Below are positions 1-7,197 of a stretch of DNA of 7,197 bases, in pieces. The position numbers were made by a program, and so were the translations under genes. How positions within the stretch are numbered: the stretch's first letter is position 1; every line of letters starts with the position of its first letter. The notes below the pieces were generated by a model. The model had not been told where the DNA came from and ran no database searches. It worked only from the letters and a program-made list of their open reading frames with translations. The DNA is from Candidatus Wukongarchaeum yapensis (GTDB lineage Archaea > Asgardarchaeota > Wukongarchaeia > Wukongarchaeales > Wukongarchaeaceae), in contig JAEOSI010000116.1 of assembly GCA_016840425.1 (NCBI GenBank), forward strand, positions 1 to 7,197. Direction: 5' to 3'.

Positions 1-285
1 GTTGTGGGTTTGCTGGAAAACATGTTCTTGTTCAACCATGATGCTTGGAATACCTATTCCTATAGCTCTGTTACATGCATCTCTTGTAAAGTGGTCGTGA
101 GATGTCTTTAATTTCTCTAAAGTTGCTTCTGATCCTGGTGGTGGGGCTACTTTTATGTCAGGGTGCACCATCCCCGCGCCCGCTTCAAAGCCCCATTTTG
201 GCGCTGATACTGGGTGTGGTGCTTCTCCAAAAACCATATCATCAGCAGCGGTATATGCCACGGATGTGTATGCTTTTCTAGCCAT
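1..285 (-). CDS. mtaB: Methanol:corrinoid methyltransferase MtaB, N-terminal 95 aa (continues beyond window start)
   Basis: Hand translation from ATG at 285-283: MARKAYTSVAYTAADDMVFGEAPHPVSAPKWGFEAGAGMVHPDIKVAPPPGSEATLEKLKTSHDHFTRDACNRAIGIGIPSIMVEQEHVFQQTHN, open to base 1. Colinear with the recalled Methanosarcina MtaB N-terminus (YTSMAY..ADEM.FG...PV......E.GAG...P....AP.P...EKL......G.P....ETEHVQQ). GAGGA SD 7 nt upstream; mtaC and mtaA in the same window. Not in the supplied ORF track. Confidence 0.9.
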   Translation of the reverse strand, partial: MARKAYTSVAYTAADDMVFGEAPHPVSAPKWGFEAGAGMVHPDIKVAPPPGSEATLEKLKTSHDHFTRDACNRAIGIGIPSIMVEQEHVFQQTHN

Positions 286-696: not shown

Positions 697-975
697 ATGT
701 TCTGTGAAATGTGCGGTAAATTTACAACAGTTCAGAAATTTATCTCTCCAAGATCAAAGACAATAACCCAGCTAATCTGTGTTTGTCCCAAATGTTTCAA
801 CCAGTTAGGTGAACAAATAACTGCAATTAAAATAGTCTCAGAAATTTTTGAGGGAATAAGATCAAAGATGGAGGATGTTAAACTTTTCCTTTATAACAAT
901 TCACTAGAGTTTGTAAAGGGTTATTTCACAGGAAAGCTTGTTAACTACTTACACAACTTTACCAGTACTAGATAA
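697..975 (+). CDS. Small zinc-ribbon/zinc-finger protein of unknown function (92 aa)
   Basis: CEMC at residues 3-6 and CPKC at residues 30-33 form a CxxC-x23-CxxC pattern. GGTGA SD at 686-690, 6 nt before the ATG. Confidence 0.65.
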   Translation: MFCEMCGKFTTVQKFISPRSKTITQLICVCPKCFNQLGEQITAIKIVSEIFEGIRSKMEDVKLFLYNNSLEFVKGYFTGKLVNYLHNFTSTR

Positions 976-1462: not shown

Positions 1463-1501
1463 ATGATATTGGAGGAGATGACTACACATGATATCGGAGG
1501 A
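1463..1501 (+). repeat. Direct repeat of the gene start, ATGATAT(T/C)GGAGGA, 25-nt period
   Basis: 1463-1476 ATGATATTGGAGGA and 1488-1501 ATGATATCGGAGGA, 13/14 identical. The two ATGs are in different frames. Confidence 0.75.
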
Positions 1502-2216
1502 AGAGGTATCAAAAAAAGTTATAGAAAAATTTAATTCGATAGAAGGAGTTATAGGCGTTATACGACTAAATGAAGATCAGGTAATAGATACATTTGGACT
1601 AGAATCTAGAGCTTTAGAAAATGTTCTGGGCGGTCTTGCTAAAGGAGTAAACGAGGGATTAGAAAAAGTTATTCAGAGTGATGCGGTATTTTCGGCATTT
1701 ACGGACAGATCTTTTGAATGGCCTAAAGACTCCCTTTTTCAAATAGTAAGTAGCGACGGAATTATAGGCGAAGAAATACGGGATAAAGAAAAGTTAGAGG
1801 AGTTAAAAAAGTCAGAAAATGTAATCATTATTGGCGATTGTTTCTATATAAAAAAAGATAAACTAGAAAATTGGAAGGCTGTTAAAGAAGGTTTATTCCG
1901 AGCAATATTTCCACCAATAAATTTCAACAGAGAAGTAAAAGATATTCCAGAAGTTGTGGAATGCATTGGATGCTTTACTAGCGGTCCCTGCTTTGAATAT
2001 TTAAAACTGGAGTTTGAGGGTAAAATAGATCTATCAGATCCCGGTTACGGCTTCTTTTTGGTAGGTCTCCGTTTTGACCCAGCTAAAGTCGCTTTTTCAC
2101 CAGGAACTAAGCCTAATGTCTTTTTAAAGAGCCTAAAAAGTCGCCATAAATCAACAGGAGGTCGAAGCCCAAATTTTGAAAAAGTTTATCGAACTTTTTT
2201 CTCAAATAATGTTTAA
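1488..2216 (+). CDS. Hypothetical protein (242 aa), probably a distant member of an uncharacterised archaeal family, with a C-terminal extension
   Basis: Long ORF with promoter, GGAGGA SD (1471-1476) and terminator. Segments NEGLEKV, DGIIGEEI, IFPPINF and FLVG recall a conserved archaeal protein family of unknown function that I cannot name reliably. Function not assignable. Confidence 0.75.
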   Translation: MISEEEVSKKVIEKFNSIEGVIGVIRLNEDQVIDTFGLESRALENVLGGLAKGVNEGLEKVIQSDAVFSAFTDRSFEWPKDSLFQIVSSDGIIGEEIRDKEKLEELKKSENVIIIGDCFYIKKDKLENWKAVKEGLFRAIFPPINFNREVKDIPEVVECIGCFTSGPCFEYLKLEFEGKIDLSDPGYGFFLVGLRFDPAKVAFSPGTKPNVFLKSLKSRHKSTGGRSPNFEKVYRTFFSNNV

Positions 2217-2351: not shown

Positions 2352-4070
2352 TTATTGTTTTCTTTCAATACTTTGTTGGAGGTCTGGGAATTCTTCTTCC
2401 ATCATTTTTTGTCCTCTTTTTTTATCTCCTACGTATAATGGTCCTCCAGGTCCTTGTCTCTCAACAAAAATTTTATCTATTCTAAGCACCGTTGTTGCTG
2501 CTTCAAAGGCCCCTAGTAAGATCTGTTTCTTAACGCCTAACGGTTCAAAAATTCCATTTTTCCCTCCAACATCTCCTATAGTACCTCTAAGACAATCAAA
2601 TCCAATGTTAGCTTTTCCGTTTTTATGTTCCATTTTTAGGTTTGCTAACAGCTCTTGAGCGTCAAAACCCGCATTTTTTGCTAGAGCTTCTGGTATGCAT
2701 TCAAGACTTTCAGCGAACTTTTTTACCGCTAATTGTTCCCTTTTACCAAACTTGTAAGCGTGTGATCTAAGTCTTTTTGAAAGCTCCAGTTCAACCGCTC
2801 CACCTCCAACCACCACAAAAGGGTTTTCTATTACATTTTTTACCGCATTTAACCCGTTTTTAATTATTCTGCTAACTTCTCTTGCAACAACGTCAATACC
2901 GCCTCTTACAAGGATTCCAATAGCTTTCGGATCTTCTACCCCCTCTATGAAAATCACCTCTTCATCACCAACCTTACGTCGCTCAAATAGTTCTGCTTTT
3001 CCTAAGTCCTCAGGTTTTAAGTCAAAAATGTCTTGAATCACTCTTGCCCCAGTAGCTTTAACTAATCGCTCCATATCATCAATCAAAGTCTGTTCAATAG
3101 CGGCAATTCCTCTTTTAAATAAAGGCTGATAAAACACATCATCGATCTTTTGTTGGCAAAAAATAACATTAGCCCCTGTTTCAGCAAATTTGCCCACTAT
3201 CTCTTCTATAATATCTCTCTGCTCGTTAGCGAAATCTTCTCTTTGTCCTAATTTAGTAATAACTAATTTTGTGTAACGGGCTTCAGAATGCCTGAAAAAT
3301 AAACCATCCATCGTTTTATTTATAAGCAATATTTTACAATTTTTAATCCTTTTTGGCATATGCTTATAAAAAACCTCTTTATCTATAATCAATCCATTAA
3401 CAATTTTTGTATCTGAAACGCCTCCTCCTTCCCTGCGTGTCAAACCTATATTATCCAAGTCAACTCTCCATTTTTCTCCGTCAACCTTTTCTGCGACCTG
3501 TTTTACTGCTTTTATAATCATATCGGCTAGATTTTGTTCTGAACCTTCTACTGTTTTGTTGTTCATGGTGCTGATTGCAACCCTTTTCAAAACATCATTA
3601 TCTTTATTTATGTCAACAAAGATTGCTATTTCTTTTAAAATCTCGAAAACTTCTTCTAATGCTTTTTTATAACCTTTTATAATCACTGTGGGATGAATTC
3701 CCATCTTTAAAAGTTCTTCAGCTTTTCTGAGAAGTTCACCTGCAATTATAATCACGCTTTTAGTACCATCTCCAACTTCCTCCTCCTGGGCTTCTACAAC
3801 TTTGGTAATAAACTTGGCTATAGGATGCTCAACTTGAGCTGCTTTTATGATTTTTGCCCCATAATTGCTTATAGCGGTGTCAACATCTTGGGGTCTAGGT
3901 CCATGAATGGTCATTAAAATTTTATCTAACCCGTTAGGCCCTAGAGATGTCTTTAACGCTTCTGCAAAAGCTTTAAAAGCCTCAATGTTTATTTTTCTCG
4001 CTTCTTCTCCTTTGATGTATCTGGATCCTTCAGTCCAAATCTGGAGTTTCTCGCTTTCAATCTTGGGCAT
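2352..4070 (-). CDS. ths: Group II chaperonin (thermosome) subunit, divergent paralogue (572 aa)
   Basis: Full-length colinearity with thermosome subunits: SLGPNGLDK, EHPIAK, EVGDGT, AGELLRKAEELL..GIHPT.II.GY, GANVIFCQ..ID, KATGA, LVRGG, GGGAVE, LA.NAG.D, EPL.VK, LRID. GAGGG SD at 4079-4083. Confidence 0.95.
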   Translation of the reverse strand: MPKIESEKLQIWTEGSRYIKGEEARKINIEAFKAFAEALKTSLGPNGLDKILMTIHGPRPQDVDTAISNYGAKIIKAAQVEHPIAKFITKVVEAQEEEVGDGTKSVIIIAGELLRKAEELLKMGIHPTVIIKGYKKALEEVFEILKEIAIFVDINKDNDVLKRVAISTMNNKTVEGSEQNLADMIIKAVKQVAEKVDGEKWRVDLDNIGLTRREGGGVSDTKIVNGLIIDKEVFYKHMPKRIKNCKILLINKTMDGLFFRHSEARYTKLVITKLGQREDFANEQRDIIEEIVGKFAETGANVIFCQQKIDDVFYQPLFKRGIAAIEQTLIDDMERLVKATGARVIQDIFDLKPEDLGKAELFERRKVGDEEVIFIEGVEDPKAIGILVRGGIDVVAREVSRIIKNGLNAVKNVIENPFVVVGGGAVELELSKRLRSHAYKFGKREQLAVKKFAESLECIPEALAKNAGFDAQELLANLKMEHKNGKANIGFDCLRGTIGDVGGKNGIFEPLGVKKQILLGAFEAATTVLRIDKIFVERQGPGGPLYVGDKKRGQKMMEEEFPDLQQSIERKQ

Positions 4071-4140: not shown

Positions 4141-4500
4141 TGCTTTCAAAGATTATAAAAAGGTAATAAAAATATAATGATAAGGCAATATAAAAATTGT
4201 GACTTTAATTAACTTAGATTTAATTATGATAAATTATAACTAAGAAAAGAAAAATTCAATTAATTATAATAGAGTATCATTTATTTTACTTAAAAAGTTT
4301 ACAAATCTAAATGTTAAAATTAAAAATCGCTTTAACTTATTAATATTGGAAAAATTCTGTCTCCATAAAATATTTAATAAATATAAAATATGGTATTATT
4401 GAATTATTTCTTAGAGATTAAGCCTATAAGAAAGCCAAATTGTATTTTCCTCTATTATTTTTTAGATATAATTTATACATTTATATTTTATTAAGTAAAT
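4141..4500. other. Extremely AT-rich non-coding spacer between divergent promoters
   Basis: Hand count 58 G+C in 360 nt (16%). No ORF in the track. Confidence 0.8.
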
Positions 4501-4511
4501 CTTTTCGGGAT

Positions 4512-4528
4512 GCGGAATACTTATATAG
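4512..4528 (+). promoter_or_regulatory. BRE + TATA box of mtaC
   Basis: GCGGAATAC-TTATATAG with TATA at 4521-4528; AGGAG SD at 4586-4590; ATG at 4600. Confidence 0.6.
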
Positions 4529-4599
4529 TGCAGGCGGGTTAGAGAACTGCCGAATAGCCATAAACGGAGTGGATAAACCACCCGTAGGAGAGACCGAAA

Positions 4600-5400
4600 A
4601 TGGTAATATTGGCAGATAAAGCAAAAGATCTCAGAACCGTTTTTAGACGTTATAGTCTCGAAGCAGAACCCGCGAGCCCAGACGCCGTAATCAAGACAGG
4701 TTTACCTTCAGACCCCAATTTTTCTAAAGTAGCTAAAGGTGTAATTGATGGAGATGCAGCAGCTGTTGAATCGAGCTTGAAAGCTGCATTTGGTGCAGGA
4801 ATAGACCCATTAACAGCCATTAATGATGGCTTAATCGCTGGAATGAATGTTGTAAGTGACCTCTACGAGAAAGGCCTTTACTACTTGCCCCAAGTAATGA
4901 TCGCAGCTGATGCGATGGCAGTAGGCATAGGCGTATGTGAAGACAAGCTTGGTCACCCAGCTGAAAAGAAAGGGTTAGTAGTCACTCATGTCGCTGAAGG
5001 CGATATCCACGATATAGGAAAAGAAATAGTTAGTGCCTTACTTGCCGCTAATGGATATGAAGTTATTAACCTAGGGAGAGACGTACCCGTAGAGGATGTC
5101 GTCAACACTGTCAGAGAGAAGAAACCTGCCATGGTGACAGGAACAGCCCTTATGACAACAACAATGACCGCTTTTCCAAGAATCGCTGCCCGGCTTAAAG
5201 AGTTGGGTATTGTAATACCGTTTGTTTGCGGCGGAGGAGCCGTTACCAGAGAGTTCGTAGAAGCCTATGATTATGGAATCCACGGCGTTAAAGCCCACCA
5301 CGCTCCACATCTAGCAGCAGCAGCAGTAAAAGGCAAAAGCTGGAAAACAATACGTGAAGATTACGAAGACATCACAGGCGGATACGCCTACAAGTGGTAG
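4600..5400 (+). CDS. mtaC: Corrinoid protein of the methanol methyltransferase system, MtaC (266 aa)
   Basis: Cobalamin His-on motif HVAEGDIHDIGK (DxHxxG), LGRDVP, TGTALMTTTM, CGGGAV, helical cap (GM..V..LY..G...LP.VM..ADAM), and the MtaC-type N-terminal arm VFRRYSL. Adjacent to an MtaA-type gene. Confidence 0.92.
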   Translation: MVILADKAKDLRTVFRRYSLEAEPASPDAVIKTGLPSDPNFSKVAKGVIDGDAAAVESSLKAAFGAGIDPLTAINDGLIAGMNVVSDLYEKGLYYLPQVMIAADAMAVGIGVCEDKLGHPAEKKGLVVTHVAEGDIHDIGKEIVSALLAANGYEVINLGRDVPVEDVVNTVREKKPAMVTGTALMTTTMTAFPRIAARLKELGIVIPFVCGGGAVTREFVEAYDYGIHGVKAHHAPHLAAAAVKGKSWKTIREDYEDITGGYAYKW

Positions 5401-5465: not shown

Positions 5466-5503
5466 AGGTGTGTTTTAGTCAAAGTTGTTTTGAGGTGTTT
5501 TTG

Positions 5504-6526
5504 TTGGCTTTAAGTTCAAAAGACCGTGTTATGCTTGCTCTTAAGGGCAAGAAGGATGAGATAGACAGGACCCCTGTTACTTGTGCTAATCAGACGGTTA
5601 CCGTAGAGCAGATGGATAACCTAGGGATTTATTGGCCTGAGGGTCATAGTGATGCTGAGAAGATGGCTCAGCTGGGTATGGCCGCTTATAAGCAGTGTGG
5701 TTTGGAAGTGGCCGATGCTCCCTTTGACCAGGCTGTGGAAGCAGAGATACTGGGTTGCGAAGTGGATCTTGGGAAGAAGAAGGAGTCTATACCTAGTGTT
5801 CCCTTCCACGGGTATAAAGAGCCTGGGGATGTCCCTATCCCTGAAGACTTCCTTGAGAAGGGCAGAATACCTACAGTTTTGAAAGCGATAGAGATCATGA
5901 AAAAGGATGTTGGGGAGGAGGCCCCGGTAATCAGCCATACCAATGGTCCCTTCTCCTTGGCAGGTCATTTAGGGGAAATCAACAAAATCTTGATTATGAT
6001 CCTTAGGACGCCTGAGAAGGTTAAGGAGTTTGCAGAGATAGGGATAGACCTTATCGCTGACTACGCTAACGCTCAGTTTGACGCTGGAGCAGATGTGGTA
6101 ACTGTTGAGGACATGCTTGCCTCCACGGACATCCTAAGCCCTCAAATGTATGATGATTTTGCTGCTCCCTTCAACACCGCCTGCATTAAAAAGATTAAAG
6201 GACCCACCATCCTCCATGTGTGCGGTAAGGGAGACCTTATCGTTGAATCTATGATAGGCTCAGGGGCTACTAACATCAGCGTGGACATGGCTACAGACCT
6301 GAACAAAGCTATCCCAAAAACAAGGGGAAGATGCACAATAATGGGCAGCGTAGACACAATTAAAGCCCTCTTCCAGGGTACACCAGAAATAGTAAGAGAA
6401 CAGGTAATTAGCAACATAAGACAGGGCGTAGACCTCGTAGCACCAGGATGTGCTCTATCACCCCTTACGAAAAGCGAACTCATAAAAGCCATGGTAAACG
6501 CATCAATAGAGTACTTCGCTGAATAA
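5504..6526 (+). CDS. mtaA: Methylcobamide:CoM methyltransferase, MtaA/MtbA family (about 340 aa; start revised from 5354 to TTG 5504)
   Basis: URO-D-like family features: KDRV..ALKG....D.TPV, YWPE.H..AE.MA.L, VEAE.LGCEV, zinc-ligand motifs LHVCG and APGC. GAGGTG SD at 5492-5497 lies 6 nt before in-frame TTG 5504. The tracked 5354 start overlaps mtaC and translates the T-rich terminator. MtaA rather than MtbA is inferred from context only. Confidence 0.88.
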   Translation: MALSSKDRVMLALKGKKDEIDRTPVTCANQTVTVEQMDNLGIYWPEGHSDAEKMAQLGMAAYKQCGLEVADAPFDQAVEAEILGCEVDLGKKKESIPSVPFHGYKEPGDVPIPEDFLEKGRIPTVLKAIEIMKKDVGEEAPVISHTNGPFSLAGHLGEINKILIMILRTPEKVKEFAEIGIDLIADYANAQFDAGADVVTVEDMLASTDILSPQMYDDFAAPFNTACIKKIKGPTILHVCGKGDLIVESMIGSGATNISVDMATDLNKAIPKTRGRCTIMGSVDTIKALFQGTPEIVREQVISNIRQGVDLVAPGCALSPLTKSELIKAMVNASIEYFAE

Positions 6527-6632: not shown

Positions 6633-7197
6633 TTAGGTTTCATTTGTTTCATTTGAAAGTCCTTTTTTTAGATTATATCGAATGAAAACCTTGTCGAAAT
6701 TTACGTCTTTTTTCTGTTTTGAAGGTTTTTTCTTTTTCTTCTTTTCTTTTTCTTCTTCTAGGTTGTATCGGATGAAAACTTTGCTGAAATCTATTTTTTT
6801 GGGGGTTGATTTTTCCATTGTTTTTTCTTTTTCTTCTTTTCTTTTTCCAAATAAATCGATGGGTTTCCCTGGCGCTATTTTTAGCCCATGTTCTAGAAAA
6901 ACTTCTTTTTCTTCTTTATCTATTTCTTCCTCCTCTATTTTACTTTCTTCTATGATCTCGATTATCCGGTGACCTTTAGGGGTTATAACCCAAAACTTCA
7001 TGCTCAAAGGCTTATTTTCATCTTCCTTTTTTACGAACTCAACTAGTCCTAAATCTTCAAAAATTTTTAGGGCAGCGCTGACATTTCGAGAAGCTGTTTT
7101 AATTTTTTTCGCTATTTGGTTAACATAGCTTGGTAAAGACTGTTCTGCGAGAAATTTAAGGACTTTTCGACGGACTTTGCTTCTTTCAAGCAACTCT
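6633..7197 (-). CDS. ArsR-like winged-HTH transcriptional regulator with charged low-complexity tail; 5' end probably outside the window
   Basis: RSKVRRKVLKFL...PSYVNQIAKKI.....NVSAAL..FEDLGLVE......FWVITPKG fits an archaeal wHTH helix/wing pattern. The tracked start is TTG 7193-7191, but the frame stays open (GAG at 7196-7194) to the window edge. Confidence 0.8.
   Translation of the reverse strand, partial: ELLERSKVRRKVLKFLAEQSLPSYVNQIAKKIKTASRNVSAALKIFEDLGLVEFVKKEDENKPLSMKFWVITPKGHRIIEIIEESKIEEEEIDKEEKEVFLEHGLKIAPGKPIDLFGKRKEEKEKTMEKSTPKKIDFSKVFIRYNLEEEKEKKKKKKPSKQKKDVNFDKVFIRYNLKKGLSNETNET
6669..6790 (-). repeat. Imperfect 32-nt duplication, 90-nt period, encoding F-x-KVFIRYNL twice
   Basis: 6669-6700 versus 6759-6790: 26/32 identical. 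Encodes NFDKVFIRYNL and DFSKVFIRYNL. Confidence 0.9.

Follow-up and report, generated by a model that had tools for sequence, protein, structure and literature searches.

The stretch of DNA analyzed here (hereafter the window) is the entire 7,197-nt contig C111 of the Asgard archaeon Candidatus Wukongarchaeum yapensis, whose assembled genome comprises 2.16 Mb and is 92% complete; where names or counts below refer to Hodarchaeota, they denote the Asgard clade made up of this genome and its close relatives. The window carries part of a methanol methyltransferase island, with genes for the methyltransferase MtaB, the methanol corrinoid protein MtaC, and an MtaA-like methyltransferase, together with the gene for an EarA-like winged-helix regulator (Table 1). 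Our subject is the C-terminal tail of that regulator, in which two short peptides resemble the N-terminal arm with which MtaC contacts MtaB.

Each end of the window shares 144 identical bases with a neighboring contig, C56 at the regulator end and C84 at the mtaB end; this is an assembly-graph overlap, and the island can therefore be read as contiguous in the order C56, the reverse complement of C111, and C84. The two genes cut by the window ends are completed by these neighbors. The regulator starts 30 nt past the contig end, and C56 supplies its first 10 codons (MEDIPVEILE, followed by LLERSK...), giving a full protein of 196 amino acids (aa); the rest of mtaB lies on C84, covering profile positions 46–459 (PF12176, E 1.3e-164 on C84 and 1.2e-24 on the window). 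As full-length MtaB we use the 462-aa protein P0126, which comes from a 97%-identical strain (L011). Both in that strain and in a sister species (L012), the island has the order cobW, RACo activase, a 219-aa B12-binding protein, the regulator, mtaA, mtaC, the thermosome paralog, a 242-aa open reading frame (ORF), mtaB, and hydantoinase.

Table 1. Features of the window, beginning with the regulator and the two proteins whose contact its tail is proposed to imitate (positions in the 7,197-nt window; HMM, hidden Markov model; AF2, AlphaFold2).
Feature	Positions	Strand	Basis or remark
EarA-like winged-helix regulator gene, 186 of 196 codons plus stop	6633–7193	-	Pfam EarA PF07381
Winged-helix DNA-binding domain, about residues 1–95 of the full protein	6939–7193	-	Pfam EarA match and AF2 model
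Arm-mimic motif 1, IDFSKVFIRYNL, window-ORF residues 134–145, full-protein residues 144–155	6759–6794	-	Arm HMM, 18.9 bits
Lysine/glutamate-rich linker between the motifs	6705–6758	-	Length and sequence differ among orthologs except for the segment PSKQKK
Arm-mimic motif 2, VNFDKVFIRYNL, window-ORF residues 164–175, full-protein residues 174–185	6669–6704	-	Arm HMM, 16.7 bits
mtaC, methanol corrinoid protein	4600–5400	+	Pfam B12-binding_2 and B12-binding; E 1.5e-66 to M. barkeri MtaC 2i2x_B
N-terminal arm of local MtaC, KDLRTVFRRYSLE, residues 9–21	4624–4662	+	Aligns to 2i2x_B residues 8–22
mtaB N-terminus, first 95 codons, proposed docking target	1–285	-	Pfam MtaB PF12176, E 4.6e-25
mtaA-like URO-D family methyltransferase, start approximate	5501–6526	+	Pfam URO-D, E 6.5e-70; 341 aa in L011
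Thermosome (Cpn60/TCP-1) paralog	2352–4070	-	Between mtaC and mtaB
242-aa ORF	1488–2216	+	Without Pfam match
92-aa ORF, CxxC...CxxC	697–975	+	Weak match to zf-FCS (E 0.003); upstream of mtaB, in a 1.2-kb region

The N-terminal part of the regulator matches the Pfam family EarA (euryarchaeal archaellum regulator A, PF07381) with an E value of 1.4e-8 and a score of 34.9 bits against a cut-off of 22, over window-ORF residues 2–80 and profile positions 5–89 of 90; the match to HTH_5 (ArsR) is marginal, at 22.7 bits against a cut-off of 22. An AF2 model from a six-row alignment places helices at residues 6–14, 16–27, 34–40, and 45–57, strands at 61–66 and 75–80, and a further helix at 82–94, an order compatible with a winged helix. 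The remaining 100 or so residues form a C-terminal tail with many lysines and glutamates; it has no regular structure in the model, and its predicted local distance difference test score (pLDDT) lies below 50 from residue 96 onward. This is a low-confidence model (mean pLDDT 47), and it was used solely for secondary structure and for the lack of modelled structure in the tail.

Within the tail stand IDFSKVFIRYNL and VNFDKVFIRYNL. A previous reading of the same DNA from its letters only (the sequence-only reading) had singled out these two peptides in a lysine/glutamate-rich winged-helix tail and compared them with the arm of the local MtaC, KDLRTVFRRYSLE; the peptides are there as it described, and the identity that it counted between DFSKVFIRYNLE and DLRTVFRRYSLE, 7 of 12 residues, is correct. 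The octapeptide KVFIRYNL is common to both motifs, and the copies within the gene differ by four synonymous codon changes, so that the repeat has been maintained as a peptide and not as DNA. We rejected a DNA-level repeat or operator as the origin of the two motifs on the same grounds, since the copies differ synonymously and the peptide is conserved. The pattern [FILVM][FILVM]xRY[NST][LVIM] occurs 13 times in the 8,589 stop-to-stop ORFs of at least 60 aa in the genome, and three of these occurrences are in the regulator and the local MtaC. The motifs are internal to the C-terminal tail and not at the N-terminus of a corrinoid protein, and the regulator has no B12-binding domain; it must therefore carry a mimic or copy of the arm, and is not itself an MtaC.

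The local MtaC has the expected architecture of a B12-binding_2 cap followed by a B12-binding Rossmann domain with the sequence DIHDIG (DxHxxG), preceded by an N-terminal extension. Its residue 10 aligns from residue 8 of the M. barkeri MtaC (2i2x_B), with DLRTVFRRYSLE paired with SLKKVLTRYNVALE; alignments to MttC and MtmC begin only at about MtaC residue 41–42. In the MtaBC complex, the MtaC arm occupies a groove that the two subunits of the MtaB dimer form between them (PMC9842639), from which it follows that an MtaB dimer has two such grooves. The sequence-only reading had taken the arm to be an MtaB-contacting extension, and both the alignment of the local arm with 2i2x_B residues 8–22 and the published description of the inter-subunit groove (PMC9842639) agree with it. 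The extension seen in the M. barkeri protein (PDB 2I2X) shares the conserved peptide core of the regulator motifs, with a difference of placement: MtaC has the arm once, at its N-terminus and ahead of the helix bundle and Rossmann domain, whereas in the regulator, a winged-helix protein, it is found twice and within the C-terminal tail.

To place the motifs against the MtaC family as a whole, we collected 120 MtaC homologs and aligned their N-termini. The arm is strongly conserved across bacterial and archaeal MtaCs, for example as DFSNIFKRYDLDLE, DYSKIFVRYDL, ANFDNIFIRYDL, and KIDFDYVCIRYNVVVE, and the consensus over all 120 (DFSNIFKRYDL, or IDFDYVCIRYNV) resembles IDFSKVFIRYNL; the core shared by arms and tail motifs is about DFxx[IV]FxRY[DN]L, or more loosely [DN]-[FY]-x-x-[IV]-F-x-R-Y-[DN]-[LV]. 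An arm HMM of 15 columns was built from 76 distinct MtaC arms, with Hodarchaeota sequences excluded, and applied to all 12,580 ORFs of 50 aa or more from a six-frame translation of the genome. Its best match is the regulator (E 2.2e-9), whose two domains score 18.9 and 16.7 bits, and the next ORF scores 9.0; a scan with an MtaC-arm profile, as the sequence-only reading had proposed, thus picks out the regulator tail genome-wide. Among 20,000 composition-preserving shuffles of the tail, the maximum score was 7.6 bits. Genuine MtaC arms score a median of 25.9 bits, and motif 1 is identical to single arms, that of P0046 for one, at as many as 10 of 16 positions. By profile match, the tail motif is thus the MtaC arm motif, chance likeness being excluded by the profile statistics.

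The same comparison modifies one part of the sequence-only reading. The likeness to the MtaC arm stands, but the local arm is not the closest relative of the motifs: at 3.1 bits it fits the HMM poorly, and the pan-MtaC consensus (about DFSxIFxRYDL) fits the motifs far better. Judged by these alignments, the local MtaC arm has diverged from the family consensus, and the regulator copies are much closer to it. A second arm-bearing protein in the window is not supported: the only other match is an ORF in the mtaC promoter region, at 4440–4619 (+), which reads PLLFFRYNLYIYILL (FFRYNL), looks non-coding, and reaches 2.9 bits with the arm HMM. The sister species had no reported counterpart, and chance in AT-rich promoter DNA is the likeliest origin of this reading.

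We next consider whether the tail might dock on MtaB in the manner of the arm. Two copies of the full-length Hodarchaeota MtaB (P0126, with a 71-row alignment) were co-folded with tail residues 136–192. The interaction prediction score from aligned errors (ipSAE) was 0.78, 0.74, and 0.23 in three runs (median 0.74), compared with 0.01 for the best of three controls. In calibration, 58 of 80 solved complexes attained this mark, as did 2 of 110 mismatched pairs, a comparison that is rough here given that the present runs used their own alignments and joined a dimer with a peptide. The runs have at least 68% of their contacts in common, with a partner pLDDT of 44–61. In the model, motif 1 (residues 144–155) contacts copy 1 of MtaB at residues 38–39, 75–80, 117–119, 233–234, and 338–346 and copy 2 at residues 359–363, and motif 2 (residues 173–185) contacts the mirror-image site in the symmetric groove of copy 2; the modelled contact residues include the invariant G38, G78, N341, D360, and R363. 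Each motif is thus predicted to occupy one inter-subunit groove, with a single tail bridging both, which agrees with the published description of the arm site. The sequence-only reading had suggested such bivalent docking, and the model with its controls (0.74 versus 0.01) seats the motifs accordingly in two symmetric grooves.

How far the tail has been conserved can be assessed from its orthologs. A word-index search returned five (P0001–P0005, 75–97% identity), and a sister-genome sequence (L008) is identical to one of these; both motifs are kept in all six, the sole substitutions being RYGL, RYNV, and VYIRYDL, mostly within the range of genuine MtaC arms. Between L011 and L012, the motif codons show 1 amino-acid change in 24 (V to I) and 3 synonymous changes, as opposed to 8 amino-acid changes in the 18 linker codons. 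This combination of conserved motifs and divergent linker is supportive but shallow, because all of the orthologs are close (at least 75% identity).

Beyond the clade, we examined the mtaB neighborhoods of 80 loci from other genomes (1.45 Mb; 15,929 ORFs) with the arm HMM at a threshold of 9 bits. Among the 49 matches at or above this threshold, 46 are in corrinoid ORFs, two are the motifs of a Hodarchaeota regulator ortholog, and one is in a 120-aa ORF. The last lies directly upstream of mtaB in the metagenome-assembled genome of a rumen methanogen (L036, 9109–9468); it has the arm ADFSKILTRYDV (17.6 bits) and no corrinoid core, and mtaC is probably frameshifted or split at this site. When 1.84 billion representatives were searched by profile, the result was one 50%-identity cluster with the tail and nine matches to the winged-helix domain only, none of which exceeds 1.8 bits on the arm HMM, so that the regulator with an arm-repeat tail appears from these searches to be confined to this clade. 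The sequence-only reading would have been undermined had the motif been equally common in regulators from genomes lacking mtaB; we found no homologous regulator with the motif outside the mtaB-bearing clade. MtaB itself is rare in the phylum, being present in 4 of the 400 genomes searched, and no arm motif was found near the two other Asgard mtaB loci (G097 and G102). These belong to Asgard genomes of another family (L017, 570–1283 - and 2789–4189 +; L016, 9242–10627 -); in one of them a nearby, divergently oriented corrinoid protein starts without an N-terminal arm, and in the other the 15.5 kb examined contain no corrinoid gene.

The nearest winged-helix homolog outside the clade is P0247, a stand-alone protein of 105 aa (L098, 10001–10318) encoded directly after hydantoinase, cobW, and RACo, accessory genes that the present island has too, a setting that links this winged-helix subfamily to corrinoid systems. 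No mta genes and no arm motif were found on the 14 kb read at that locus; the C-terminal end of P0247, VVRRYDYEIENR, has a faint echo of the arm (1.8 bits). The genes for P0248 and P0249, also winged-helix matches, have an unrelated context or none.

A second peculiarity of the island concerns the arrangement of its genes. In the classical mtaCB operon the two genes adjoin: of the 90 mtaB genes counted across the 80 loci, 88 have a corrinoid gene on the same strand within 400 nt. Only the Hodarchaeota locus and one locus that is cut at its end depart from this. In the island studied here, mtaB and mtaC-mtaA are about 4.3 kb apart and on opposite strands, with the thermosome gene and another gene between them (compare Table 1 with L011, mtaC at 11647–12447 and mtaB at 16763–18151). 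Because mtaB and mtaC are separate transcription units in this lineage, co-transcription cannot set their ratio. The only word shared among the promoter regions of the island is GGTCTCTCCT, or in reverse complement AGGAGAGACC. Read on the strand of the genes, AGGAGAGACC immediately precedes two start codons in both species, those of mtaC and of the gene for the 219-aa B12-binding protein, and it occurs again some 30 nt away from the 242-aa gene (in L011, at 9451–9462, 12448–12459, and approximately 15589–15600); it looks like a shared ribosome-binding-site context and not an operator.

We consider it slightly favored that the regulator is an EarA-like winged-helix transcription factor that senses the MtaC-free MtaB dimer through its arm-mimic tail. 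The more general form of this proposal, in which a transcription factor gauges an unassembled enzyme subunit through tandem copies of its partner's docking peptide, with one tail bridging both grooves, strikes us as evenly poised. That the tail mimics the arm was the interpretation put forward by the sequence-only reading, and every computational test that it proposed supports it, in the case of binding by means of a model. In the mechanism that we envisage, the winged-helix domain would bind DNA in the island, as its family membership and the location of its gene suggest, and the tail, modelled without regular structure, would present the two arm mimics. An MtaB dimer free of MtaC, and so with both grooves free, could capture one tail with avidity; MtaC, which binds through its helix bundle and Rossmann domain as well as its arm, would displace the tail, such that MtaC-loaded MtaB could not bind the regulator. 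The fraction of regulator held by MtaB would then report the excess of MtaB over MtaC, and would alter the action of the regulator at the mta-island promoters, adjusting mtaB, mtaC-mtaA, or both so as to balance them. The DNA binding, the competition with MtaC, and the regulatory output (sequestration or activation, and the promoters concerned) are our inference.

Several observations weigh against this proposal. The divergence of the local MtaC arm makes it less than certain that the groove of the local MtaB prefers the consensus motif. Binding is a model score, and since a similar complex has been solved (2I2X), the pass may reflect the model's memory of the MtaC arm and not real affinity; one run in three scored 0.23, and the pLDDT of the partner is low. 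The agreement on the groove is with the site as described in PMC9842639, at the level of the groove as a whole. Conservation of the modelled MtaB contacts as a set (0.73) does not significantly exceed that of the whole protein (0.68), as 1,102 of 10,000 random residue sets reach an equally high value. All orthologs being at least 75% identical, the conservation evidence is shallow, and the AF2 model of the regulator is of low confidence (mean pLDDT 47). Finally, no shared operator-like motif was found when repeats and shared 12-mers were sought in three divergent promoter regions of two species.

That last result counts in favor of a first alternative, in which the tail docks on MtaB post-translationally and occupies its arm grooves, for instance as long as corrinoid-loaded MtaC is lacking; the protein would be a placeholder, an assembly factor, or a competitive inhibitor, and its winged helix would serve for dimerization or some other end. 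The evidence for docking is the same as for a sensor, and the island also contains assembly or activation genes in cobW, the RACo activase, and the thermosome paralog. However, the N-terminal domain matches a DNA-binding winged-helix family above the Pfam cut-off, the closest homolog, P0247, is a stand-alone winged-helix protein of 105 aa, as expected of a transcription factor, and a simple inhibitor would need no DNA-binding domain; we therefore regard this alternative as unlikely, if the most serious of those considered.

Alternatively, the motifs might be functional and bind a partner other than MtaB, be it the regulator's own winged helix (auto-inhibition), another copy of the regulator (oligomerization), the RACo activase, MtaA, or the 219-aa B12-binding protein, with the likeness to the arm reflecting a shared second partner or convergence. 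The gap between the local MtaC arm (3.1 bits) and the tail motifs (17–19 bits) lends this some weight, as the tail does not simply track the local MtaC–MtaB pair, and so does the low score of one complex run. Set against it are the facts that the MtaB inter-subunit groove is the only documented partner of this segment of MtaC (PMC9842639), that the model seats both motifs in MtaB grooves with controls near zero, and that elsewhere in the 80 loci the motif belongs to MtaB-partnered corrinoid proteins alone, and we hold the whole of this alternative to be rather improbable. Least probable by some distance is a functionless relic, whether captured and duplicated 5′ mtaC fragments fused to the regulator or a chance likeness in a low-complexity tail: the tail is indeed repetitive and rich in lysine and glutamate, and the orthologs are too close to prove long-term selection, but the profile statistics exclude chance, the peptide is kept in both copies despite synonymous differences as the linker diverges, and the ortholog substitutions (RYGL, RYNV, VYIRYDL) fall mostly within the range of real MtaC arms.

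Sensing of free MtaB by the regulator would have partial parallels among known systems. Transcription factors controlled by an enzyme or transporter ("trigger enzymes") include TnrA and GlnR, controlled by glutamine synthetase in Bacillus, and Mlc with PtsG and MalT with MalK in E. coli. As proposed for the regulator, the activity of such factors is set by contact with a pathway enzyme, and in TnrA/GlnR the contact is likewise made by the C-terminal tail of the factor. The signal proposed here, however, is an unassembled subunit and not a metabolite-bound state of the enzyme; and to our knowledge none of TnrA/GlnR, Mlc, and MalT carries single or tandem copies of the docking peptide of its enzyme's partner. 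The same logic is found in the ribosomal-protein operons, which are autoregulated by mRNA mimics of an rRNA binding site: there too a mimic of the partner captures an unassembled component and feeds back on expression, keeping stoichiometry, except that an RNA structure acting on translation is the mimic in that case, and the mimic proposed here is a peptide carried by a DNA-binding protein.

Two further comparisons concern the regulator as a DNA-binding protein. Its winged-helix domain scores above the gathering threshold of EarA, whose context is the archaellum operon, whereas the regulator gene belongs to the mta island in two species, and the arm-repeat tail is absent from every other winged-helix match. 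The Msr (ArsR-type) regulators of mtaCB in M. acetivorans are, as here, small helix-turn-helix proteins encoded near methanol methyltransferase genes; a phmmer search with the winged-helix domain against the 15,929 ORFs of the 80 mtaB loci, many of them from Methanosarcina, found only the Hodarchaeota ortholog at E values up to 10. We know of no described factor with tandem copies of the docking arm of a partner subunit, and we found no description in archaea of the sensing of a partner-less enzyme through docking-peptide mimicry.

Turning to the remaining genes of the island, MtaB keeps E164, C220, and C269 invariant in the 71-sequence alignment that has the Hodarchaeota protein as its first row; these residues are reportedly the zinc ligands in the 2I2X study. 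The mtaA-like gene is apparently co-transcribed with mtaC. The thermosome paralog, in which KS follows the GDGT motif, occupies the same place in the sister species (L012, 13117–14814) and might serve the methyltransferase proteins as a dedicated folding helper. The position of the 242-aa ORF is kept in both species (L011, 14831–15559; L012, 14963–15697). The 92-aa CxxC ORF is not called as a gene in L011, and the equivalent region of L012 has a called gene of 127 aa. A search of the 92%-complete genome for McrA (PF02249) found none, and the set of MtaB, MtaC, and URO-D-type MtaA appears to work outside methanogenesis.

If the regulator does sense free MtaB through its tail, this would be a new way to balance two enzyme subunits, in which the free subunit is read by imitating its partner, with no small-molecule ligand. 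It would constitute a protein-level counterpart of ribosomal-protein autoregulation by rRNA mimicry, in an Asgard archaeon with mtaB unusually separated from mtaC. It would also be a clear case, in a prokaryote, of regulation through mimicry of a short linear motif; this mode is regarded as typical of eukaryotes, and the example would come from the archaeal lineage nearest to eukaryotes. For the MtaC family, the conserved arm would act as a portable docking tag for MtaB, one that could recruit proteins to it, and for the organism, the finding adds to the picture of methanol use by a non-methanogenic Asgard archaeon.

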